Positions 8,013 through 53,877 of a stretch of DNA of 64,000 nt are shown here, in pieces. The notes under the pieces were generated by a model that saw nothing but the letters and a program-made list of their open reading frames with translations, searched no databases and was not told the DNA's origin. Source of the DNA: Candidatus Dadabacteria bacterium (lineage in GTDB: Bacteria; Desulfobacterota_D; UBA1144; Nemesobacterales; CSP1-2); NCBI GenBank assembly GCA_963805855.1, contig CAWDVW010000006.1:128001-192000 (forward strand), written 5' to 3'. The position numbers and the translations under genes are program-made. Every line of letters begins with the position of its first letter. Position 1 is the stretch's first letter.

Positions 8013-8050
8013 ATAATTATAATAGGCTACACCTTTACACGACGTTCTTA

Positions 8051-8096
8051 GGTACAACCCCCTTTTTGCCAAGCTCGGTTTAAGTTGGAATCATAG
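8051..8096 (+). repeat. Copy R0 of the ~45-bp IS3-end-like repeat (opposite strand to the five island copies)
   Basis: GGTACAACCCCCTTTTTGCCAAGCTCGGTTTAAGTTGGAATCATAG; CGGTTTAAGTTGGAATCATA is the exact reverse complement of 52082-52101. Confidence 0.85.
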
Positions 8097-8371
8097 AAAT
8101 TTTAATGCTTAATAGCAATACTATTACCTAGGGTATATGGGGTTGTTTATCAAAAATCTAGGTTACACGATGTACCCATTATGCCGGCAGGCCATTTTCG
8201 GTTTCTCCATACTTGCCCCTTGACTAGAAATTACATTTATCGTAGTATCAAGTAGAAGAGCGATTTGCAGTATAACACTCCTATGGCAGAAATATACTGC
8301 ATTTCTGCTGCCCAGCGTGATTATTAGTTAGACCAAGCACTATGTTGTGTTGGGTTTTGAAACAAGATTAG

Positions 8372-40614: not shown

Positions 40615-41631
40615 GGGGTCAAATCTTTTGTTTATAAGTTTTGTTTATAATATCTTCGACCTTTTTTCTAAACCTTTTGTCCTTCTCCATTTTTACCCGT
40701 ACCCAGTTACAAGCCCATCCTACCACCCCATAACTACTTACTCCAAACATCCCTGCTACCTCATTTAGCGTTATATCACATAACTGCTTTACTAAATGCA
40801 TCCCTACCTTCCTCGCTTCACTATCACTTCCCTTTCTCCACCGAAGCACCTCATCAACTCTTGTCCCATATGCCGTAGCCACATTACTAGCTACCTCATT
40901 CACCGACGGCCTCAACCATACTCTCTCATGCCGAGGATGCTCTCTTCCTATCTTGCCTATCTTCTCCCTTACCCTTTCCCTAAAATCCTCTCCTCCTAAT
41001 ATTGGACTCTGGCGACTACGAGTATAAAACTTTTTTAACTTATCCTCATTCCCCGATAAAACAAACTCCTGAAATTCTCTAACACTACGGAATTCCTCCA
41101 ATAACTCAGTTACATTAAGCCACTGCGGTGCCTTTTTTGGTTTCAAATAGTTCTTATGGCTGCTCCACTTGTATTCGTCAGGTTCTTTAGCCAGTCCAGC
41201 CTCAATAGGATTCAAATGTATGTATCGCACTACAGCCGTCAGATATCTATCACCGTCTATCACTATTGCCTTGAATCGACCCCGAAATATGGGACCGTCT
41301 CGTCCATGCATTCTGTTAAATCTCTGTGTGTATAGACCGTCAACATGGCGCATGACACGGGAAAGATTTGCCTCCGGGGTCCTTAGGCAGACGTGATAAT
41401 GGCTACTCATCAGACAGTATGCAAAGACCTCAATACCCCAACGTTCATGGGTCTCAGCGATAGTCTTCAGAAATTCCTCGAAGTCTTTTGTCTGTATAAA
41501 TATCTTCTGACGTGCGATCCCACGATTCATCACATGGTATATTGCACCCGGAAACTGAATCCGAAGCGGACGAGACATTATAGATAATTATAGGGGAATC
41601 AATTAGACTTCTAAACAAAAGATTTGACCCC
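40615..41631 (-). mobile_element. Element carrying a RAYT-type transposase, bounded by perfect 20-bp terminal inverted repeats
   Basis: GGGGTCAAATCTTTTGTTTA at 40615-40634 and its reverse complement at 41612-41631. Confidence 0.85.
40619..41578 (-). CDS. REP-associated (Y1/HUH) tyrosine transposase with C-terminal HTH (DnaA-C-like)
   Basis: YHVMNRG, AYCLMSSHYH (HUH), YIHLNP, YKWSS. Confidence 0.92.
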   Translation of the reverse strand: MSRPLRIQFPGAIYHVMNRGIARQKIFIQTKDFEEFLKTIAETHERWGIEVFAYCLMSSHYHVCLRTPEANLSRVMRHVDGLYTQRFNRMHGRDGPIFRGRFKAIVIDGDRYLTAVVRYIHLNPIEAGLAKEPDEYKWSSHKNYLKPKKAPQWLNVTELLEEFRSVREFQEFVLSGNEDKLKKFYTRSRQSPILGGEDFRERVREKIGKIGREHPRHERVWLRPSVNEVASNVATAYGTRVDEVLRWRKGSDSEARKVGMHLVKQLCDITLNEVAGMFGVSSYGVVGWACNWVRVKMEKDKRFRKKVEDIINKTYKQKI

Positions 41632-42074: not shown

Positions 42075-42393
42075 GTCGAATCCACTTGAATATCATATTC
42101 GCATTTCAGGTCCAAAGAAGATGCTTCTCCCGTGCCTTTGTAGGTGTCTCGGTTAATTCAGTGATGAAGTCTCCCATTCTTTGTGGCAAACTCATTGGTC
42201 ATTCGAGGTTCATCGAGGAAAACAGCCATCTGCATCTCGCATTTCTTAGCCGAACTCGTAATTATACTGAATAATTCAATATAATCAGCTGTCAGGGTGA
42301 TAGTTAAGGATTCTATTTAATTTAAACCTGTTCGATTCATACACCCCATATGCTCTGACTATATATAAATAATAATCTCAAGTCAAAGAATGC

Positions 42394-42435: not shown

Positions 42436-42590
42436 TGACATTGACCTACATGCACTCATACATTATCATGAGCTACTATGGAACAACGTAAACTGAATGA
42501 TGCAGAAATTGCGCATATGCAAGTGAGGCTTCCAATTGAGCTGTATAAAATAATTAGACAGGTCGCCTTTATTGAGACAGGGAGGATCGA

Positions 42591-43430
42591 ATGCCTATCT
42601 ATATGGATCGTCATGACATCAAAGGCACGACTGCAACTGAAGTTGCAGAGGCCCATCAGAAAGATCTTGAAATCCAAGACAAGTACGGTTGCAAGGCCCT
42701 GACATATTGGTTTGATGAAGCAAATGGTACGACTTTTTGTTTAATAGAGGCTCCGAGAAAACAAGCTGTAGAGCAGATGCACCATGAAGCTCATGGACAT
42801 GTTCCCAGCGAAATCATCGAAGTCAACCCTGGGGCCGTGAAGGCGTTCCTTGGAAGAATCGAGGACCCGCCAATGCCAACCAAGTCGCCTGCGCCTACCA
42901 GTAACGTACCAATAATAGACTCTGCCTTTCGCACTATCATGTTCACGGATATGGAGGGTTCCACGACTATAACAACACGCCTCGGGGACTCTAAAGCCAT
43001 GGAACTCCTTCGTACTCATGATGCCATTATTCGCGATGTTATAAAGACTCATGATGGCAACGAAGTTAAACACACAGGTGACGGTTTCATGGTTTCCTTT
43101 TGCTCTGTTTCTCGCGCTGTAGAGTGTGCTATGTCTATTCAAAGGGCTGTTGCTTCTTATAATAATAAGGAGCCCATCGCTACTATCCACCTTCGCATTG
43201 GCATCACTGCTGGTGAGCCCGTCACGGGAGGCCAGGATCTATTTGGCTCCACCGTCCAACTCGCTGCTCGCATCTGTGACCATGCTAAACCTGAACAGAT
43301 TTTGGTCACACGTGTAATACAAGATCTGTGCATCGGCAAGAAATTGCCATTTTCCGACCAGGGTGAGATACCGCTACGTGGTTTCGATGAGCCTGTGCGG
43401 CTGTATGAGGTTAGATGGCAGGCGGCATAG
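42591..43430 (+). CDS. DUF4242 (SCO4226-like) domain fused to a class III adenylate/guanylate cyclase
   Basis: MPIYMDRH...AHQKDL...H..AHG; FTDMEGST, KHTGDG, DLFGSTVQLAAR. Confidence 0.9.
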   Translation: MPIYMDRHDIKGTTATEVAEAHQKDLEIQDKYGCKALTYWFDEANGTTFCLIEAPRKQAVEQMHHEAHGHVPSEIIEVNPGAVKAFLGRIEDPPMPTKSPAPTSNVPIIDSAFRTIMFTDMEGSTTITTRLGDSKAMELLRTHDAIIRDVIKTHDGNEVKHTGDGFMVSFCSVSRAVECAMSIQRAVASYNNKEPIATIHLRIGITAGEPVTGGQDLFGSTVQLAARICDHAKPEQILVTRVIQDLCIGKKLPFSDQGEIPLRGFDEPVRLYEVRWQAA

Positions 43431-43518
43431 TATGGAATTATATAAATTTCACAAATGTAATCCACAAATAAACTTAAATGTGCTCTGCTTAATTGTAGCC
43501 GAGACAAATTCAAGAACA

Positions 43519-43612
43519 CTTACCCCGAAAGTTTTTTAGCAAATACTGTGTGTCAAAGAAACTATTACGCCCCCTGGCAGGGGGGGGTAGGGTCAGCCGG
43601 TAGGGTATGGGG
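43519..43612 (+). repeat. G-rich ~92-bp repeat, copy L1
   Basis: Close match to 51134-51225. Confidence 0.85.
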
Positions 43613-44303: not shown

Positions 44304-44348
44304 CTTTATTCCAGTTTAAACCGAGCTTGACAAAAGGGGAGCGGTACA
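44304..44348 (-). repeat. Repeat copy R3
   Basis: TTCCAGTTTAAACCGAGCTTGACAAAAGGGGAGCGGTACA. Confidence 0.9.
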
Positions 44349-44511
44349 AACTACCCTTTGTACCAATCCATATAGAGACTTTGCAACAACCACAATTCCA
44401 CCTGTCAGAGGGTGTGAGATTCAGTAGCAATCTGTCTATTCCGTAAAGACAATAAAGAATGTCTGCCGGCATTCCACCCGGCTGTTGTGCGACGTTCTCT
44501 ACAGGTAGGAT

Positions 44512-44615
44512 GAGGCAGACTGTTTTCTCATATTAACTCTTCCTCTGTTTTTTTTAATTCAACGGTAAGTGAGCCTATTATTTGGGTTAGCTCTTGATTC
44601 TTTTTACGAAGGCGA
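44512..44615 (-). repeat. 104-bp inverted copy of the IS3 orfA/orfB junction (48089-48192)
   Basis: Exact reverse-complement match by eye. Confidence 0.9.
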
Positions 44616-44714
44616 ATGGCGGATAAGGGAAGTGGTGCGATGTGCGATGATCTGGAGGGAAAAAGAAGGAGGCTGGATCATCAGATAAGCAGGCTTTTTA
44701 GGGCTGAGGGCAAA

Positions 44715-45584
44715 GTGCCTGCCAAATCACGACCCCTTCGTGCTTGCTCACAGGATAGCGGTTCTCGACCATCTGGCTAAAGGGAGATTCTATTGGGGTG
44801 TCGGGTCCGGTACCTTTATAGGTGACTTTGAGGCATTCGGGATTGACCCAAAAACAGGAGAGCAAAGGGAATTAACCAGTGACTCACTGGATTTTATCCT
44901 TAATTTGTGGAAAAACCCGAAGCCCGGTTTTTATGGAAACAACAGATGGAAATTTCGGGTACCAGAACCGCAAAATGACGTAGGTCTTGGCGTAGATATA
45001 AGTCCGTATCAGAGACCGCATCCCCCAATAGCCGTGGCGGGGATAACCGAAAGGTCTGAGACGCTGAGAATCGCCGGAGAACAGGGGATGGATACCCATG
45101 AGCATTAATTTCATACCAAAAAATGTGTTGATGACGCATTGGTCATCGGTCGAAGAAGGAGCCCGAATGTCAGGAAAAAACCCGGATCGCTCGAAATGGC
45201 GGATTGCAAGGGATGTCTATGTCGCCGAGACTACCGAGGACGCCCGTCGGGAGGTAAAGCAGGGAACACTGTCTAGGGATTTTACAGACTACTTTTTCAA
45301 ACTAGTCCCAAGGATTAGGGGCAATTTAAAACACCTTTAAAGTCGATAAATCTATGCCCGATTCGGATGTGACTGCTGACTACATGATCGATAATCTTTG
45401 GTTAGTCGGAAACCCTGATGATGTTGTCGACCAAATTAAAGAAGTTTATCACCATGTTGGCGGCTTTGGGGTGCTGCTTGTGATGGGACATGAATGGAAA
45501 CCCAAAGACAACTGGGTCAGATGCATGAAGCTATTGGTTGAAGAGGTACTGCCGCGCTTGAAAAATTTAGGGAATAACGCTTAA
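44715..45584 (+). pseudogene. LLM-class flavin-dependent oxidoreductase, 5'-truncated and frameshifted
   Basis: CLPNHDPFVLAHRIAVLDHLAKGR, PYQRPHPPIAVA, VGGFGVLL, split across three ORFs. Confidence 0.85.
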
Positions 45585-45681
45585 GGTAGGCTTCGTCGCC
45601 TCCATACTAATCCTCCCAGATCAATGGTGAGCTTCCCTTACGGTGGCAGACGGTACGACGCTCGGATTCCACCTGCATCGA

Positions 45682-46463
45682 TTAATCCGCATGCCTAATC
45701 ATGAACCCCTCCATCAGCGTCTGCAGCATGACGGGTGTCTCCTCCATCGGGTAGTGGCCCGATTCGATCTAGCAAACTCTATGTTGTCATGCCATTTCGT
45801 AAAAGTTGCGCGCTGCGCCTCGATCCGCTCGTTGGGGAGGTCGTATTTTCCGCAGATTACCAGAAATGGCAGAGTGACACAGCCCGCTTCAGGTGAAAAA
45901 TCGTGTAGTGTAAACATATCTAGGTAGCCTCGCGCCGCTGCAGCGGTTCGGGTCTGGCGCGCGCGGCGCATCTTAAACTTCTTCCACTGTGTCGAAAGTC
46001 GGTTACCCATGGCAAAGTCAGGAGTTCATGGAATTTCTCATCATCGGTGATGGAGTCGATGGCTTTCTGCCGCAACTCTTCGGGCATTTGAAGCCGGCTG
46101 CCGAGACCGCAGCGATAGCAACCACACTCTTGAGCGCTCTGGCACGTCGATTGCCAACCGCTCGACGACCATGCCGGTCATTGAGAAGCCAACCAAATGA
46201 ACACGATTCCAACTAAGGTGATCGATCAGCTCGAGCGTATCAGCGGCAGCCTCGGTTTCGTTGTACTCACCCGTGAGGTGGATGGAACGGCCGTACCCGC
46301 GTACGTCGGTCAGCACATAGGTGAATCGATCTACATCGAGATACTGCATAACCGGCTCCCAACTCGTGCAGTCACCCATCCAATCGTTGTAGACAACAAC
46401 CTTCTCGGTCCATGCCCGAGCAATCTGTGTCCCAAGAGTGCCAATGGTCACGACTCCCGTCAC
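45682..46463 (-). pseudogene. Alpha/beta hydrolase, frameshifted
   Basis: DVRGYGRS, HLVGFSMTG, LVICGKYD in different frames. Confidence 0.8.
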
Positions 46464-47023
46464 AATGCTGCAACGCTGAACTATAACGCCACCCGCGGAT
46501 GCCCAGCATCAAATCGCGGGCCCAACATCAATCTCAAATATTTATTCTACTCGTTCCAAATTTAAAACGCACATTACACTGCGCGTCAAAGTGATTGACA
46601 ATTTTTGTTACCAAAGATACCAATGATAACTAAGCGATTAATTCATTCTCCCAATGAACTAGGAGAATGGAACCTGATTACCAAAATGTGTCGTTACAGG
46701 TCTAGGAAATTCTTCTTTTGCGGATCAAAAATTAAGATTCGGTCTATTTTGTACAGGGTTAAATTAAGTTTTTATATGATCTATACACTCAGAACCAAGA
46801 TGGCCTTCTCACAGTTCGTCTTCTCGTGGTGCTGCGCGTCCCCCCCTAGACCAAAAACGCCCAATATCCCAAGACTGATTTCCCTCGCCATTGTTCGACC
46901 GATTTGTCTGGTGACACTGCTGTTCATGATGGTTTCAAGAGTTCCTTTATCAGCTGATGACCTTGATCTTCCAACCTTCATTTTCCATATCGCCACGAAG
47001 TTGAAAAAATACTTAATAATCAT

Positions 47024-47335
47024 TTGGTAAAAAAGACAAGTTTTTCCAATGAATTGTATCTCTGCGAAAAGTGTTACAGACTTTATGCGAGATTCTACGT
47101 AAGGATAGATTACGATGAAGATAAGACTTATACGACAGTGTACGTATGTAGCAAGTGTGAAGAGTTACTTAAAAGTATAAGGGAAGAAGAGATACCCTTA
47201 ATACCCTGTGCTAAATGTGGGGAAGAAAGCTCTAGAATACCGCCTGAGTTTGCTATGGGATTAAACTCCGATTTATGGAACGTATGGTACCAGCCTGTTG
47301 TTTGTCCTGCGTCAACTTTTATTAAGGTTACTTAG
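47024..47335 (+). pseudogene. Zn-ribbon (multiple CxxC) hypothetical protein, probably 5'-truncated
   Basis: CEKC, CSKC, CAKC; no clear RBS. Confidence 0.45.
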
Positions 47336-47385
47336 AAATGAACAGGGTAAGTCTAATTGATTTTTGAGAGTGGAGAGGTGTTAAT

Positions 47386-47763
47386 GTGAGCAAAACTGAA
47401 ACGCCAATGATTAGAAGGTACTGGGAGATGGTTGGTGGTACATTGATTGAAGAATTTCCTGTTGTTAAGGGAACAAGGTACCAAGGAGCGAGGAGAATAG
47501 ATGCGATAATAATTAAAAATGGTGAGAGGAGAATAGCAAAATCAAATGAAGTTTCTTTAAAAGGTAAGGATATTATTTGTGTTCAAGCTAAAAGTCATAG
47601 ACTTGGTATGTATTTAATGGGACAGACGTTTTTCTCTGAGCAGCTATTAAGGAGATTTGAGCCGAGTAGTGTCTCATGCGTTGCTTTATGTGCCAAAGAC
47701 GATGCAGTCCTAAGACCATTAATAGAACAGTATCCACAGATGAAAGTTGTTGTAATTGATTAG
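47386..47763 (+). CDS. Hypothetical protein with a PD-(D/E)XK nuclease-like motif
   Basis: GAGG RBS; E...RIDAIII...CVQAK. Confidence 0.6.
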   Translation: MSKTETPMIRRYWEMVGGTLIEEFPVVKGTRYQGARRIDAIIIKNGERRIAKSNEVSLKGKDIICVQAKSHRLGMYLMGQTFFSEQLLRRFEPSSVSCVALCAKDDAVLRPLIEQYPQMKVVVID

Positions 47764-47900
47764 AGTTGAAATCTCAGAATATCATAACGAGGATGAGTTA
47801 TTAGCTATGTTAGCACCATGGCTACGATATACTGCTCCCCATTAAGGAGTGAGTGTGATTAAGTGAGAAAATATCTGTAATAGACAATGGGGGAGCAACC

Positions 47901-48176
47901 ATGAAACGAAGAAGATGGGATTCTAAAGCCAAGACAAAAATAGTACTTGAAGGTCTGTCCGGTAGACCAGTATCAGACATTTGCAACGACTTCGGAATAC
48001 ATCAGAACCAATACTACACCTGGCGGGACAAGTTTTTATCAGAAGCCCACAGAGCCTTTGAATCCAAAAAAGACGGTGCACAAGTAAATCGCCTTCGTAA
48101 AAAGAATCAAGAGCTAACCCAAATAATAGGCTCACTTACCGTTGAATTAAAAAAAACAGAGGAAGAGTTAATATGA
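47901..48176 (+). CDS. IS3-family transposase OrfA (HTH)
   Basis: KTKIVLEGL...ICNDFGIHQNQYYTWRDKF, ends ELKK. Confidence 0.9.
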   Translation: MKRRRWDSKAKTKIVLEGLSGRPVSDICNDFGIHQNQYYTWRDKFLSEAHRAFESKKDGAQVNRLRKKNQELTQIIGSLTVELKKTEEELI

Positions 48177-48943
48177 GAAAACAGTCTGCCTCTGTATCCT
48201 TTAGTAACGAATACTTACTTACACGAATAAAGGATATAAAAGCGGAACATCCTTTCTGAGGTTATAGAAGAGTATGGGCATATCTAAGATATATAGATGG
48301 ACTAGTAGTTAACAAGAAGCGTGTATACAGGCTTATGAGAGAGAATAACCTTACCGTTAAGCCTAACACAAGACTAATAGCAAAGAGGATATCAGGAAGA
48401 CCAAAGCCAAGACCTGATAGACCCAGACAGTGGTGGGGAGTAGACATGACAAAGGTCATGACTGACAGTGGCCGGGTATATGTAGTAATAGTACTGGACT
48501 GGTATACGAAGAAGATAGTAGGTTACTACAGTGGAACAAGAGCCACAACCATAGAATGGCTGGAAGCTTTAGAGAAAGGACTAAACCGAGAGTTCCCCGG
48601 AGGGGTGAGAGGACATGAATTAAAGCTCATGAGCGATAATGGGAGTCAGCCTACTTCACTTAGTTTTATGAAAGCATGTTCCAATCTGGAAGTAGAGCAA
48701 GCATTTACCAGTTACAATAACCCGAAGGGTAATGCGGATACGGAGAGAATGATAAGAACGATGAAAGAGGAGCTATTTTGGCTAAGAGAGTGGAAGAGTG
48801 AAAGAGAGCTTAGTCATGAGCTGGATAAATGGATTAAGTATTACAACACAAGCTACCTTCATTCAGCACTTGGATACCGAACACCGATTCAGTTAGAAGA
48901 GGAATATTACAGGAATATCACTTCACATGAAAATGCTGCTTGA
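48173..48943 (+). pseudogene. IS3-family transposase OrfB (DDE/rve) with an in-frame stop at 48257
   Basis: HPF*GYRRVWA; WGVDMT, SDNGSQ, ERMIRTMKEE, YYN...HSALGY. Confidence 0.88.
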
Positions 48944-49055
48944 GTAATTTACTTCATAGTAATTACAACTTTTCCTTAGAGCCTTGGCTATAGTATAATA
49001 AGGGTGTAATAGATTTCATTTTAAGCCCTGTATTTAGATAGTCAGGGGTAATTAT

Positions 49056-49541
49056 ATGGCTCAACCAACTGACATAGCTCAGAATCATATTGTAAAAGAC
49101 CTGATGCTTTATCCTGTTTCCCCCTCAATACTTTATTATGTTGAACTGCCGGGAACCAAGTGCAAGATTATCCAAAACAATGGTAACAAACTCTACTGCG
49201 CAAAATATCCTATGCTTAAAGGACTGTTCAGAAAGGACATGGATGAAACTAAGAAATACGGAAAAATAATCTGCTATAAAGTGGCAGAGAAACTGGACAA
49301 CTTCGGCTTTTTCACCTCCGATGAGCGCCCTGAATATGGAATATCGTACGGTATATCCGAAAAAGAATTCGCGTATATGTTTGAGCTAATCGGGGCTAAA
49401 GAAGGCGAGCACTTAGTTGCAATGTTCGCATATCCGGAAAGAGAGGCACTTGAGTCAAAAATCTTTTTTGAAAAACTGCTTAGAAAGACTTACTTCTCCT
49501 ATATTCTAGATAAAAAAATTTTCAATATGTTTTTTGGTTAA
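49056..49541 (+). CDS. Stand-alone GAD-like domain protein (resembles the GatE/AspRS insertion domain)
   Basis: TKCKII...KGLF...GFFTSDERPEYGIS...IGAKEGE resembles GatE GIFHSDELPxYGI. Confidence 0.6.
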   Translation: MAQPTDIAQNHIVKDLMLYPVSPSILYYVELPGTKCKIIQNNGNKLYCAKYPMLKGLFRKDMDETKKYGKIICYKVAEKLDNFGFFTSDERPEYGISYGISEKEFAYMFELIGAKEGEHLVAMFAYPEREALESKIFFEKLLRKTYFSYILDKKIFNMFFG

Positions 49542-49632
49542 GTAAACTCTGTTTTCATCCCCGTAGGGCTCCCTCGGCTCTTGCTCATAAAGCAGCTAAT
49601 AGTTACAAGGTTAGGTTGGGAATGAACGAATA

Positions 49633-49677
49633 CTATAATCCAACTTAGACCGAGCTTGACAAAAGGGGTGCGGTACA
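49633..49677 (-). repeat. Repeat copy R4
   Basis: CTATAATCCAACTTAGACCGAGCTTGACAAAAGGGGTGCGGTACA. Confidence 0.9.
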
Positions 49678-49889
49678 ACGACCATTTAGACTTAATACAT
49701 TATATGACGATTGGGAAAACGCACCATCTTACTCGGGATGACCAATATGGATAACAAAATCGTGCTTGAATGGAGAGGTGCCTTCGACTGGTTTGGCTCA
49801 TCCGAGAACGTCACGGCCAGCCCTGACACTATGAACCCCGCTGCTGGGAACCTCTCTCTGTATACACGGAGTTCCTTAAGGGAATGAGC

Positions 49890-49937
49890 TCGACACAGTG
49901 GAAGAAGTTTAAGATGCGCCGCGCGCGCCAGACCCGA
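49890..49937 (-). repeat. 48-bp inverted copy of 45948-45995
   Basis: Exact reverse-complement match. Confidence 0.9.
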
Positions 49938-49999
49938 GAACCTATGCTGAGAGTAACCTCGCTTCTCTATCCTGTCTTCTTATTGTTATTGGTTCAGGC

Positions 50000-50238
50000 G
50001 GTTTTTCCACAAATTAAGGATAAAATCCAGTGAGTCACTGGTTAATTCCCTTTGCTCTCCTGTTTTTGGGTCAATCCCGAATGCCTCAAAGTCACCTATA
50101 AAGGTACCGGACCGACACCCCAATAGAATCTCCCTTTAGCCAGATGGTCGAGAACCGCTATCCTGTGGGCAAGCCCGAAGGGGTCGTGATTTGGCAGGCA
50201 CTTTGCCCTCAGCCCTAAAAAGCCTGCTTATCTGATGA
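50000..50238 (-). repeat. ~240-bp inverted copy of 44678-44917
   Basis: Reverse-complement match with about three differences. Confidence 0.9.
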
Positions 50239-50648
50239 GTGGTTTAATTCCAAATGGATGGCGGGTGTCTTTCCTCAGCAGGCATGGTCCGTCGCGGGTG
50301 ATGATAATCGCCCGGAAACAAGCCAGGCCAAGACCCAGGGGCACAAGCTCGCACAAGCCATCATCCCCCCCGTAGAGAAAGCCTTGACCCTGAAGTTCTG
50401 GGCTGCCCTCTTCTCCCTCAGGATTACATCAGCCACAAGCATCTCTCCCGATAGTATGTATACGTCCAGCGCACCCCTCATCGGGCACACGCCCAGATGG
50501 AAAACACAGGCTATGTTAATACTTCACCTCGACGAAGGAGTAACAATAACACCAAACTTTGCGCTATAAGACCTATAATCGGGAATTATAGGCATGCTCG
50601 CAGTCTAATTAATAGTTAGGCACAGAAAAGCGCAGGAACTGTCATCCA

Positions 50649-50975
50649 TTGGTAACAAGCTCTGCATACTTTACCACGAACGACGGGGTGAGGCTGCATT
50701 ACCTCGAAGCAGGTCACGGGAGACCACTCGTGCTGCTGCCGGGGTGGACACAGCCGGCCGAGACGTATATCTCGCGGTTCAAATCAGACCCTTACTCCAT
50801 TCTTATTGCTGAAATGCTCTTGAGGAAAACTACAGCCTTACAGGTTGAAAGAATATTTCGCTTTACTTCGGGAAAGGGTGACGCTAAAAAATTAGCCAGG
50901 GAAGGAATAAAACAGGGGTTTACCCATTTTGTTTCTGTCGGGGGGGACGGTACTGCACATGAAGTGGTGAATTGA
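50649..50975 (+). pseudogene. Chimeric ORF: hydrolase N-terminus + HhH-GPD glycosylase fragment + diacylglycerol-kinase-family fragment
   Basis: DGVRLHYLEAGHGRPLVLLPGW / DPYSILIAEMLLRKTT / VSVGGDGTAHEVVN. Confidence 0.7.
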
Positions 50976-51058
50976 AGGCGACAAAGCCAAACTTGATGAC
51001 CTGGTTTCAACGCTCGAGCCAAGCATTGGGTAGGAATCGGAAAACGAAATACTGGATA

Positions 51059-51099
51059 TTGGCCTGGCTTGTTTCCGGGCGATTATCATCACCCGCGAC
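51059..51099 (-). repeat. 41-bp inverted copy of 50291-50331
   Basis: Exact reverse-complement match. Confidence 0.9.
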
Positions 51100-51133
51100 C
51101 GTAGAGGCGGCTTCTAAGTGAATTGATGCATAA

Positions 51134-51225
51134 CCTACCCCGAAATTTTTAGCAAATACTGAGTGTCAAAGAAGCTATTACGCACCCTGCCAGGGGGGGG
51201 GTAGGGTCAGCCCGTAGGGTATGGG
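51134..51225 (+). repeat. G-rich ~92-bp repeat, copy L2
   Basis: TACCCCGAAA...GCAAATACTG...G-run-TAGGGTCAGCC.GTAGGGTATGGG. Confidence 0.85.
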
Positions 51226-51471
51226 TACGTAGGCCAGAGCTTTCATTTTCTTCTCTATAACCCCACAGACAAAAGAAAGCAATAAGGTATAACAACCATG
51301 ATTTCACCTGTCAGAGGGTGTGAGGTGTAGAAACCCACTGTTAGCGGGCATACGCTTTTATGACCAAGAGCCTAGGGAGCCGTGTGACTCCCTCCGCCTT
51401 GGGTTATACGTTTCTCGCTGGTGCAGGTGGGTGCATGCTGGTTTGGGCTACCACTCAGACGACCTGGATTA

Positions 51472-51990
51472 TCACGGCGTGAGCGTAGGTGAAGGCTCGC
51501 AACTGTATGATGCTTGTGCAGGGTCGATTTGGACGATGTTCTTCTGAGCCAGTTCGGTTGTGTACTGCGCTAGTCGGCATAGACACGTCTCAAATTGGGC
51601 TTCAGAAGTGCCGTTTGATTCGGGTTGGACGTCGCAGAACGGTGGTGCATTCCCGAGCGTGAAGGCTACGGAGCACCCTAGGCTGCTGCCATCGCGTATC
51701 GCGGTATTGGCGAACCTGTTCCCGTCGCCCACTGGCTGGGATAATGCACAACCATCAGATGGTAGCGAGTCGCATTGGGATGATGTGCAGTTGTCGAAGT
51801 CGATATTCTCGCAACTGCAAAATACGCCTCCCCAGCAATCTGTGGTCATGGGTACCTTGAAGTAGTCGCATGGGCACTCTGCTACTGCAGCGAGCTCGGC
51901 ACATGGGTCGCCGCCACCGCCATCACCATCACATCCAATGCCTACAGCTAGCAGAAATAGTAACGCTAAGAATATCTTATGAGGCTTCAT
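51472..51990 (-). CDS. Cys-rich hypothetical lipoprotein
   Basis: G-rich RBS, lipobox GIGC, DGDGGGG linker, many Cys. Confidence 0.75.
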   Translation of the reverse strand: MKPHKIFLALLFLLAVGIGCDGDGGGGDPCAELAAVAECPCDYFKVPMTTDCWGGVFCSCENIDFDNCTSSQCDSLPSDGCALSQPVGDGNRFANTAIRDGSSLGCSVAFTLGNAPPFCDVQPESNGTSEAQFETCLCRLAQYTTELAQKNIVQIDPAQASYSCEPSPTLTP

Positions 51991-52080
51991 AATATCCCCC
52001 CCCCTTACGATTTTATTTGAGTAATACGCCTGACAGCACTTGGCAACTTTATCATATGTTTGATGCGAAATGCAAGGATA

Positions 52081-52124
52081 TTATGATTCCAACTTAAACC
52101 GCCGTTGACAAAAGGGGAGCAGGA
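52081..52124 (-). repeat. Repeat copy R5, abutting the integrase remnant
   Basis: TTATGATTCCAACTTAAACCGCCGTTGACAAAAGGGGAGCAGGA. Confidence 0.85.
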
Positions 52125-52127
52125 TAG

Positions 52128-52418
52128 GCAATAAAAGAAGCCGGTGTTAAATGCACCTTCCACAGTTTAAGACATACATTCGCAAGCAACCTGGTTACAC
52201 GCTTGAAAGAGGATATGGTAACGGTAATGGAGTTAACCGGACATAAAGATATTAGGATGCTAAAACGATATAGCCATACAAAAAAAGAGCTAAAAAAAGA
52301 GGCTATGTCAACATTGGGGAATCATCTAAAATCCCTCGATTTGGATACATCCATAGACACCTCCTCGGACACCTCTACAGGTGACAAGATTTTCACCAAA
52401 TTATCTGTTATATCTTAA
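52128..52418 (+). pseudogene. C-terminal remnant of a tyrosine recombinase/integrase
   Basis: FHSLRHTFASNL...ELTGHKDIRMLKRYSH catalytic motifs; N-terminal part missing; points toward the tRNA-Glu 3' end. Confidence 0.9.
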
Positions 52419-52444: not shown

Positions 52445-52522
52445 TGGCGTCCCCGAGGGGATTTGAACCCCTGTTACCGCCTTGAAAGGGCGATGTCCTA
52501 GGCCAGGCTAGACGACGGGGAC
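52445..52522 (-). tRNA. tRNA-Glu (TTC)
   Basis: GTCCCCGTCGTCTAG...CTTTCAA loop...GTTCAAATCCCCTCGGGGACGCCA. Confidence 0.96.
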
Positions 52523-52527
52523 GGGAG

Positions 52528-52601
52528 TGAGCCGTGCAGGATTCGAACCTGCGACCCACTGCTTAAAAGGCAGTTGCTCTACCTAGCTGAGCTAACGGCT
52601 C
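52528..52601 (-). tRNA. tRNA-Lys (TTT), CCA not encoded
   Basis: GAGCCGTTAGCTCAG...CTTTTAA loop...GTTCGAATCCTGCACGGCTCA. Confidence 0.96.
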
Positions 52602-52718: not shown

Positions 52719-53877
52719 ATGGTCCTGGATTTAGATCGGAATCAGTTTAAGAACTTTTCATTGATTATCACATCCAGTTTTCTGTTTTTCTGTAATTTTT
52801 CTTCCTTTTTTCTTTTGCCTCTATTTATAAAAAGCCTGGGAGGGAATGAAAGAAACATAGGCTTTGTGATGGGTTCATTTGGAATCACGTCCATAGGGTC
52901 TATCCCTATCGTTTCCTACTTATTAGACAAATATGGAAGGCGTAAATTCCTTGTGCTCGGGAGTTTAGTTATGAGTTTGTCTTCATTTGGCTTCATTTTC
53001 ATAAAAGATCTAAGCCCTCTTCTATATGTATTCAGATTATTTCAGGGGATTGGTTTTGCTTTCTTTTTCACTTCTGCGGCTACCGCCGCGGTAGATGTAA
53101 TACCTGAATCGAGAAGGGGCCAGGGTCTCGGAATATTTGGGGCATTTCTTATTTTAACCTATGCCATAGGTCCGAGTATTGGTGAATTGGTCATTGATAA
53201 ATTTGGATTTAGTCTGTTTTTTATAATCACATCATCATTCAGCCTAGCTGCTACCTTCTCTGTTTTTTTTATAAGGGATGTTGCATTTAAACGATCGACA
53301 GACACAAATGCACTCCGTTTTTTTTACCTCGCATTCTCCAAGAGATACTTTGTATTACTACTTACCAATATAATCGCAGCAAGCGGCTTTGGCTCTGTAC
53401 TATACTTCATATCGGTATACCTAAAATCCAAGGGGTTGAATGTCTCTTATTTCTTCGTTACCTATACCATTACCGTTGCAGCTTTGAGGATTTTAGGCGG
53501 TAGAATCTCTGACGTCTTTGGAAGGAAGGGTGTAGCATCTCCGAGCCTGTTTCTATTTTCACTGGCGATAGCATCGGTTGCCTTAATAAATTCGGTATAT
53601 ATGATTGTTCTGGTCTCAGTATTATTCAGTGTCGGATATGGAATGTTATATCCAACGCTCAGCGCCCTTGTCATTGATAAGTCATGGGCCGGACGAAAGG
53701 GGAAAGGCAATGGGCGCTTATAATGCGAGCTTCAGCATGGGTGTTAATTTTCCAACGTTTGCCTTTGGTATAATTGCTAAAAATTGGGGTTTTGTTGATA
53801 TGTACCTTATATCGGCATTCATTGTTTTCGTAGGGTTTTTAATATTCACCTTTTTTGAAGCCAAGCGGTACTCTTGA
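52719..53877 (+). CDS. MFS transporter with an apparent frameshift near 53685
   Basis: DKYGRR and SDVFGRK loops; the last helices continue in another frame (PDERGKAMG). Confidence 0.85.

Follow-up and report, generated by a model that had tools for sequence, protein, structure and literature searches.

Complex rearrangements with templated insertions are accounted for by the models of fork stalling and template switching (FoSTeS) and of break-induced replication mediated by microhomology (MMBIR), and microhomology at the junctions is the defining mark of this class. Related scars have been described in other settings. Tandem inversion duplications (TIDs) that are remodelled by deletions were reportedly found in Salmonella by Kugelberg et al. 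2010 (Genetics 185:65), and the Drosophila inversions flanked by inverted duplications that were treated by Ranz et al. 2007 are said to come from staggered breaks. The subject here is a cluster of four short inverted duplications in the interior of an island, positions 44350-51130 of a window of 64,000 nt (i.e., the whole stretch of DNA that was analysed) from a Candidatus Dadabacteria bacterium (GCA_963805855.1, CAWDVW010000006.1, 128,001-192,000, forward strand). The duplications are best read as template-switch or break-repair scars in neutral junk DNA, with a probability of about 0.55, and they add a natural case to a kind of mutational scar that is already known; they are not a new system.

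The genome that holds the window (G000) is 3.11 Mb in 9 contigs and is 94% complete. Coordinates are window positions unless prefixed with C5, which is another contig of G000. The comparison set consisted of 101 genomes of the order; genomes of relatives are numbered G001, G002, etc., and G001 belongs to the same genus. In addition, assembled contigs from four runs listed as metagenomes (X1 to X4) were compared with the window, and the sequence of the window genome recurs in metagenome runs. Regions that lack cover in X1 (49180-49563, 49948-50331 and 51100-52251) and in X3 (44572-45339 and 49948-51099) are taken as holes and not as evidence.

The initial annotation had reported four inverted pairs lying among gene scraps, and both observations are borne out. 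Segment A′ (44512-44615) is a perfect inverted copy (104 bp, 100%) of source A at 48089-48192, inside an insertion sequence (IS) of the IS3 type. Segment B (44678-44917), at the start of a truncated gene for a luciferase-like monooxygenase (LLM), recurs inverted as B′ (50000-50238); the two are 240 and 239 bp long and 98.75% identical, and their three differences are two substitutions and one 1-bp deletion. A 48-bp segment of a hydrolase pseudogene, C (45948-45995), has a perfect inverted copy, C′, at 49890-49937. The last pair (50291-50338 and 51052-51099) belongs to an outer-membrane gene and is 96% identical over 48 bp, with 41 bp exact (X41, 50291-50331, and X41′, 51059-51099). The other scraps among which the pairs lie include hydrolase, glycosylase and kinase pieces. 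Alignments that include 80-bp flanks show a sharp loss of identity at each end of all four pairs. The four sequences are unrelated to one another and have no motif or crossover core in common. Read in the orientation of the source, three of the four duplicated tracts (starts 48089, 44678, 45948 and 50291) begin with TC, twice as TCG, and the remaining one with GTC; this is statistically weak.

The four pairs are far beyond chance. The 9.9-kb island has inverted exact matches of 114, 104, 63, 56, 48 and 41 nt. For 199 segments of this size drawn at random from the genome, the longest match of this kind was 14 nt at the median, 32 nt at the 99th percentile and at most 63 nt. A self-comparison of the whole genome found 12 local inverted pairs (no more than 15 kb apart and at least 93% identical) in 3.11 Mb. 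Four of these are the island pairs, all within 6.6 kb, and the remaining ones coincide with repeats that recur elsewhere in the genome. There are 54 short two-copy duplicates in the genome, and only six are inverted and on the same contig within 15 kb; again, four of the six are the island pairs. No additional local templated patch of 13 nt or more was found in the 9.9-kb island.

The pairs are parts of two chains of fragments. The left chain follows R3 (44304-44349, forward strand), a copy of a motif of about 42 nt, termed R, whose right-hand sequence differs between strains. Directly after R3 is a conserved segment, u1 (44350-44493, forward strand), which resembles 51291-51341. Contigs from X2 (record 10) and X4 (record 27) keep to the order of the window as far as 44493 and depart from it beyond that point, and the left chain starts at 44494, 144 bp past R3. 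It is made up of an 18-bp filler with no source in the genome (f1, 44494-44511), A′ on the reverse strand and a 62-bp purine-rich filler for which no source was found (f2, 44616-44677). Next to it is B, on the forward strand. The first 20 bp of B are unrelated DNA, and then the LLM pseudogene begins (44698-45584, forward strand), which matches Pfam PF00296 in three frames. Some 76 codons are missing from its N-terminal end, and it is interrupted by +1 insertions near 45078 and near 45328. It parallels a core copy at C5:528464-529333 and is 79% identical, with 2 gaps, to C5:528488-529318. Homology to LLM starts at 44698 at the protein level or at about 44715 at the DNA level. Thus B carries 20-37 bp from upstream of this start, and the truncation of LLM is therefore older than the 240-bp copy, as had been proposed.

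The right chain follows another copy of the motif, R4 (49633-49678, forward strand), directly after which an X4 contig (record 30) departs from the window. The chain begins with 211 bp for which no source was found (u2, 49679-49889), followed by C′ on the reverse strand, a 62-bp filler, also with no source found (f3, 49938-49999), and B′ on the reverse strand. Fillers f2 and f3 have exactly the same length yet are unrelated in sequence, f2 being purine-rich and f3 pyrimidine-rich on the forward strand. Next is Xa (50239-50331, forward strand), which ends with X41. Its bases 50240-50331 are the upstream part of what was a 132-bp piece of an outer-membrane beta-barrel gene. The inverted downstream part of the same piece, Xb′ (51019-51099, reverse strand), has X41′ as its last 41 bp. 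The gene is contiguous in G014, G096 and G097 (as a 299-aa open reading frame, ORF, in G096), and here it is in two parts that have 41 bp in common. One contig of X2 bridges the X41 repeat (joint 50333/51056), and in X4 the reverse complement of 50558-50761 directly abuts 51100 (204 letters on the shorter side). From these joins and the contiguous gene of the relatives it follows that the window is rearranged with respect to relatives.

Between Xa and Xb′ are a 226-bp filler, F (50332-50557), in which X1 has a joint and a loose end at 50514/50548, and three scraps of unrelated genes on the forward strand. S1 (50558-50768) consists of a conserved 65-bp upstream element and, from a chloroperoxidase-like alpha/beta hydrolase, codons 1-40 (as much as 97% identical over 35 aa). 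S2 (50775-50858) corresponds to about residues 41-63 of an HhH-GPD adenine glycosylase and is in frame with S1 (P0035, P0036). S3 (50870-50972) corresponds to about residues 40-73 of a diacylglycerol/lipid kinase (Pfam PF00781, NCBIfam YegS) in the same frame. Pieces of three unrelated genes are in this way read in one frame of 108 codons (50616-50972, forward strand) with a native TTG start; the glycosylase piece has about 25 aa and the lipid-kinase piece about 35 aa. Gene calls on two contigs include the chimeric ORF (P0038) in a version of 81 aa. The 65-bp element (50558-50622) starts exactly at the X4 breakpoint, and at least seven related genomes have it, conserved at 75-81% identity, upstream of genes that differ. 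No source for f1, f2, f3, u2 or F was found in the window's own genome. In the 101 genomes of the order, the fillers also had no source, with the exception of this 65-bp element and of a 35-bp piece of F (50514-50548), which in G001 lies about 390 bp upstream of a cyclase gene. Many of the scraps without a source in the genome have a G+C content of about 50%, as against 42-44%.

Source and copy can be told apart, because the LLM pseudogene runs natively after B to 45584, an 839-nt X2 contig (record 12) spans 45745-46575 natively around C, and A′ matches the island's own IS3-like element best (100%, as opposed to 87-92% for other IS3 copies in C5, G036 and G007). The suggestion that B′ keeps an ancestral base (C, at column 71 of the B/B′ alignment) was dropped, as the site is synonymous and the outgroups are only 75-86% identical. 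All four copies have sources 0.7-5.1 kb away, at 98.75-100% identity, as in the template-switch class, and A′, B′ and C′ come from 3.5-5.1 kb. The template-switch origin put forward at the outset is the best fit to dispersed inverted duplications from such distances.

From these data we infer both a mechanism and a number of events. The junk-filled interior of a decayed integrative island beside tRNA genes for Glu and Lys would host the scars, which would not have been selected against because the DNA is non-functional. One or a few faulty replication or break-repair events would have copied short tracts from the opposite strand of island DNA close by (104 bp from the IS3-like gene, 48 bp from the hydrolase pseudogene and 240 bp from the shortened LLM gene) and sealed them with filler; the outer-membrane scrap would have been split and one of its parts turned round, with 41 bp present in both. 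Wrong-strand synthesis is invoked because inversions, deletions and transposition do not duplicate internal tracts of 41-240 bp. It may have come about by template switching, by fold-back priming or by the filling in of staggered breaks. Classical end joining is disfavoured, since the search of the genome (94% complete) for a Ku gene was negative. C′ and B′ are 62 bp apart and have the order and polarity of one inverted tract, and they may represent a single tract of synthesis that ran on an inverted template from 45995 to 44678, leaving out 1030 bp. The end of the identity between B and B′, at 44678, directly adjoins the left filler chain f1-A′-f2, which fits a single break or mirror point at that position. 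An iterative process had been suggested initially; the data instead fit one or a few events, with C′ and B′ collinear on one inverted tract, and no dedicated machinery is implied.

The resemblance to the known classes is partial in each case. As in FoSTeS events and in MMBIR, the latter as defined in PMC8421209, short nearby tracts were copied, often inverted, with sharp ends and with what may be several switches in cis (C′-f3-B′). However, the island's tracts of 48-240 bp from 3.5-5 kb exceed the classic quasi-palindrome switches in both size and distance. The order A′ / B..C..A / C′..B′ can be read as inverted-direct-inverted with the outer copies mostly deleted, like that of a TID, although an order of this kind is expected by chance about one time in two, and the boundary at 44678, common to B and the end of B′, would be the unit boundary. 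Unlike in a TID, 1.7 kb of single-copy DNA separates the middle copies from the right ones, where the IS3-like element, a 161-aa gene, R4 and u2 are located, and amplification is not selected for at this locus. Nor was a quasi-palindrome identified at the present junctions, although the original ones would have been lost by deletion. On either side of a segment that is oppositely arranged in relatives lies the X41 pair, and the split scrap with its 41-bp overlap at both ends is similar to the products of staggered-break inversions. In this case the clean X4 breakpoint is at 50558/51100 and not at 50332, and one junction has a filler of 226 bp. We know of no inversions with inverted duplications from staggered breaks that have been documented for bacteria.

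Other assemblies contain some of the junctions. An X1 contig (record 4; 745 nt, mean word depth 5.7) covers 44512-45116 with no differences and crosses the junctions A′-f2 (44615/6) and f2-B (44677/8) as well as the LLM truncation. P0060, a protein of 103 aa (50258-50566), spans Xa, X41 and F, and in the protein collection it is known only from a 10,548-bp ENA contig. On an ENA contig of the same length and source, the 161-aa gene differs from that of the window at 2 residues, and the LLM piece lacks the second frameshift. The first piece of LLM (122 aa) and an ORF of 125 aa are each found on two contigs, and the 122-aa piece is also found on JGI contigs. The truncated and frameshifted LLM exists on JGI contigs, those with the same LLM pieces being 7,926 bp long, and the +1 insertion near 45328 is absent from the ENA and JGI versions. 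The copies, their sources and their polarity are plain from the sequences, as are their uniqueness in the genome and the presence of some junctions in other assemblies.

Several observations weigh against scars of template switching or break repair, or against the accuracy of the window itself. No microhomology was evident in the junction contexts viewed, where hardly any junction has an assigned second template. Most scraps (u2, f1-f3, F and S1-S3) have no local template, and a switch between templates of the island therefore cannot account for them; deletions could have left them over from earlier cassettes, or they could be foreign fragments that were captured. The shared length of f2 and f3 is unexplained. 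B′, C′ and X41′ have no independent confirmation, X1 being without cover at 49948-50331. Of 20 small ORFs that span junctions, 14 have no exact match in the protein collection, and of the six that are recorded three (P0078, P0079 and P0083) occur only on the window's own contig. X1 record 4 continues for 140 nt to the left of 44512 with sequence unlike that of the window, and junction 44511/2 is therefore unsupported; in X1, the segment between the 104-bp arms (44616-48088) may be inverted, or more of the IS may be present in the inverted piece. Over 45745-46575 the window and the X2 contig differ by 8 gaps (at 45770-46503) and only 10 substitutions. At seven places in this region one or two bases present in X2 to X4, and partly in X1, are missing from the window, and none of the seven is in a homopolymer. 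Other changes private to the window are the +1 near 45328 and two residues in the 161-aa gene. In comparison, housekeeping DNA, which is 91-93% identical to that of G001 and G002, has just 1-2 gaps in 3.7 kb. Either the indels that are in excess here are a genuine cluster of mutations (a -1 burst in the hydrolase pseudogene) or the local consensus is poor.

The private indels and the unconfirmed copies speak for an artefact, either of chimeras from multiple displacement amplification (MDA), which the initial annotation had named as the main alternative, or of mis-joining and poor consensus in the assembly of a low-coverage, strain-variable long-read metagenome. The island-specific contigs of X1 are indeed shallow (about 3-6, compared with about 25-30 in the flanks). 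According to Lasken & Stockwell 2007 (PMC1855051), inverted joins with intervening deletions make up more than 85% of 475 MDA chimeras, with 2-21 nt of complementarity at more than 70% of the junctions. All four island pairs have this form, being inverted with 0.7-5.1 kb between the members. Unlike MDA chimeras, the pairs are confined to one 6.6-kb spot and some junctions are in separately assembled contigs. Overlaps of 2-21 nt were not seen, but few junctions have an assigned second template against which they could be scored. The random, single-molecule nature of MDA chimeras does not fit this clustering (4 of the 12 local inverted pairs of the genome) or the separate contigs, so that an MDA origin is disfavoured; nor is a 9-contig, 94%-complete assembly a typical single-cell product. 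That the missing bases of the hydrolase pseudogene lie outside homopolymers also speaks against an artefact. The X1 contig is a k-mer assembly and crosses three left junctions exactly, and chained pieces of about 100 bp from unrelated genes would be impossible in a de Bruijn graph without long shared words. An artefact is thus unlikely, because the cluster is unique in the assembly, the X1 contig crosses junctions, P0060 is on a separate ENA contig with a neighbouring gene that differs at 2 residues, and the truncated, frameshifted LLM recurs on JGI contigs.

The setting of the chains is an island anchored at genes for tRNA-Glu and tRNA-Lys (52445-52601, reverse strand). Beside them is the C-terminal remnant of a tyrosine recombinase (52128-52415, forward strand; Pfam PF00589, with NCBIfam matches to the C-termini of Xer and of integron integrases). 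Only about the last 96 codons are present, Xer and integron integrases score alike, and the point of truncation adjoins R5 (52082-52127). R copies in one orientation are found at 42391, about 43713, 44304, 49633 and 52082. An additional copy at 8042-8102 lies 30 nt past a tRNA-Asn gene, and its orientation to that tRNA is the same as that of R5 to tRNA-Glu. Junctions are concentrated at the right edge of R in X2 to X4, where numerous joints lead from one R to another and contigs have various loose ends at 44348-44350. Synteny with G001 holds to 52434 and is followed there by an IS and unrelated DNA, i.e., by another island at this tRNA. The locus is a variable insertion hot spot, because the R-edge junctions vary in X2 to X4 and G001 differs past 52434. 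The right-hand limit of the patches is a second type of repeat, L2 (51146-51225, forward strand), which is 90-93% identical to 43533-43611.

It had been proposed that the patches extend from R3 and R4 to L2 and result from a process tied to these repeats. The chains do lie in slots bounded by R3, R4 and L2, but the left chain does not begin directly at R3. R is moreover a genome-wide motif, with 19 nhmmer hits (E<0.001) in the whole genome, of which 13 are outside this island and the tRNA-Asn copy, and none of the 13 is within 15 kb of any local inverted pair. A general process linked to the R/L repeats is therefore unsupported. When R and its flanks were folded in six cases, the z-scores lay between -0.67 and +0.67 and the folds had no long hairpin in common, and the idea that R is an attC-like hairpin was rejected on these values. 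The island resembles integron cassette arrays in having small units, some of them in unrelated contexts (the 161-aa gene), that are bounded by a repeat in one orientation near the remnant of a tyrosine recombinase; it differs in that R, of about 42 nt, has no attC-like hairpin and the island's ORFs are on both strands.

The remaining explanations give the island's enzymes or incoming DNA a larger part. Rather unlikely is the action of the IS3-like transposase, of a tyrosine recombinase at R or of a Y1 transposase at secondary sites. Genes of these three kinds are present within the island or next to it, that of the Y1 (IS200-like) transposase at 40619-41578; the right edge of R is a junction hot spot in the population, both chains occupy slots that start at an R copy, and the TC/GTC starts of the sources are a weak hint of a preferred cut site. 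Transposases and recombinases move or invert DNA, but to our knowledge they do not duplicate internal tracts of 41-240 bp. A′ corresponds to about positions 262-365 of a 1121-bp element and includes no IS end, which is unlike IS-mediated rearrangement, and the pairs share no crossover sequence and the recombinase is truncated, which is unlike a shufflon or invertase; the 13 other R copies, as said, have no inverted pairs nearby. The capture of short single-stranded or degraded pieces of DNA, from the sediment or from the cell's own genome, by illegitimate recombination is a less probable source again. It would suit the scraps that have no genomic source and a higher G+C content, as well as the frame that joins pieces of about 100 bp from three unrelated genes. 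SPDIR (short-patch double illegitimate recombination; 10.1101/2023.11.22.568220) inserts ectopic single strands during replication and leaves patches of foreign or ectopic sequence. The patches are, however, described there as microindels with microhomology at both ends, whereas those of the island are 35-240 bp long, are chained and, if self-derived, are inverted. Capture also leaves unexplained the inverted orientation and nearby origin of every one of the four self-derived copies, and the collinearity of C′ and B′. Improbable as well is a further variant, in which repeated breaks at R borders (e.g., by the recombinase) are repaired by low-fidelity strand-switching synthesis that leaves backward copies, scraps of about 35-240 bp and clustered single-base deletions. 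Recombination at R may make breaks nearby, which would be a reasonable link. If this variant were true, the locus would be a natural workshop that builds chimeric frames and cassettes, and the 108-codon hydrolase-glycosylase-kinase frame would be an example. A dedicated system for repeated capture and shuffling of fragments at R/L sites is the least probable of all. The position of the chains between R3/R4 and L2, the variation of R borders in the population and the gene calls, on two contigs, for the chimeric ORF behind its native start could be cited for it. But no inverted patches are near the 13 other R copies, R does not fold like attC, no intact enzyme gene is linked to the stretch, and it has no extra templated patches of 13 nt or more.

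Other features of the island are as follows. The alpha/beta-hydrolase pseudogene that contains C is at 45640-46510 (ends approximate; reverse strand; Pfam and NCBIfam matches). A scrap at 46842-46979 (forward strand) is 76% identical to C5:529719-529856, part of the gene downstream of LLM in the C5 core copy, and its junction is inside an X2 contig (record 13). The IS3-like element (47828-48948, forward strand) has an orfA at 47901-48176, from which A′ was copied, and an orfB at 48260-48940 (Pfam HTH_Tnp_1 and rve). It is 81-82% identical to copies in C5, G007 and G036, and when its ends were read no matching right inverted repeat was seen. In G036, in G007 and in run X3 the end of the IS3-like unit directly abuts R, and here the 161-aa gene (49056-49541, forward strand) lies between them. 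This gene has a weak match to a GatE insertion region (E 3e-6, far below the cut-off). It is present at 16 metagenome loci, which share only the ORF (about 49056-49543) and have unrelated flanks, and for this reason it is said to behave as a mobile cassette does. Scans of the unknown ORFs for anti-phage defence (PADLOC) and with NCBIfam gave only this weak GatE-like hit and hits for a cyclase. The latter is part of a 1028-bp unit (42436-43463) with an SCO4226-like domain fused to a nucleotide cyclase (weak PycC-type hits). The unit begins exactly at the end of R1 and is 99% identical to C5:816954-817981; C5:816-835 kb is a second island of related modules. At 53686 the window has GGG and G001 has GG, and a transporter gene is split into ORFs of 334 and 90 aa. 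One reverse transcriptase gene is found at a distance, at C5:310 kb.

If real, which is likely, the cluster is a compact natural record of copy-backwards repair errors in an uncultured sediment bacterium. It opens no new field and indicates no new machinery. Such events are well studied in yeast, in cancer genomes and in laboratory Salmonella and E. coli, and they are rarely seen preserved in wild bacterial genomes. For genome curators, clustered inverted patches in an assembly need not be amplification artefacts. The cluster also illustrates the accumulation of scrambled pieces of genes, in-frame chimeras among them, in the junk regions of integrative islands.

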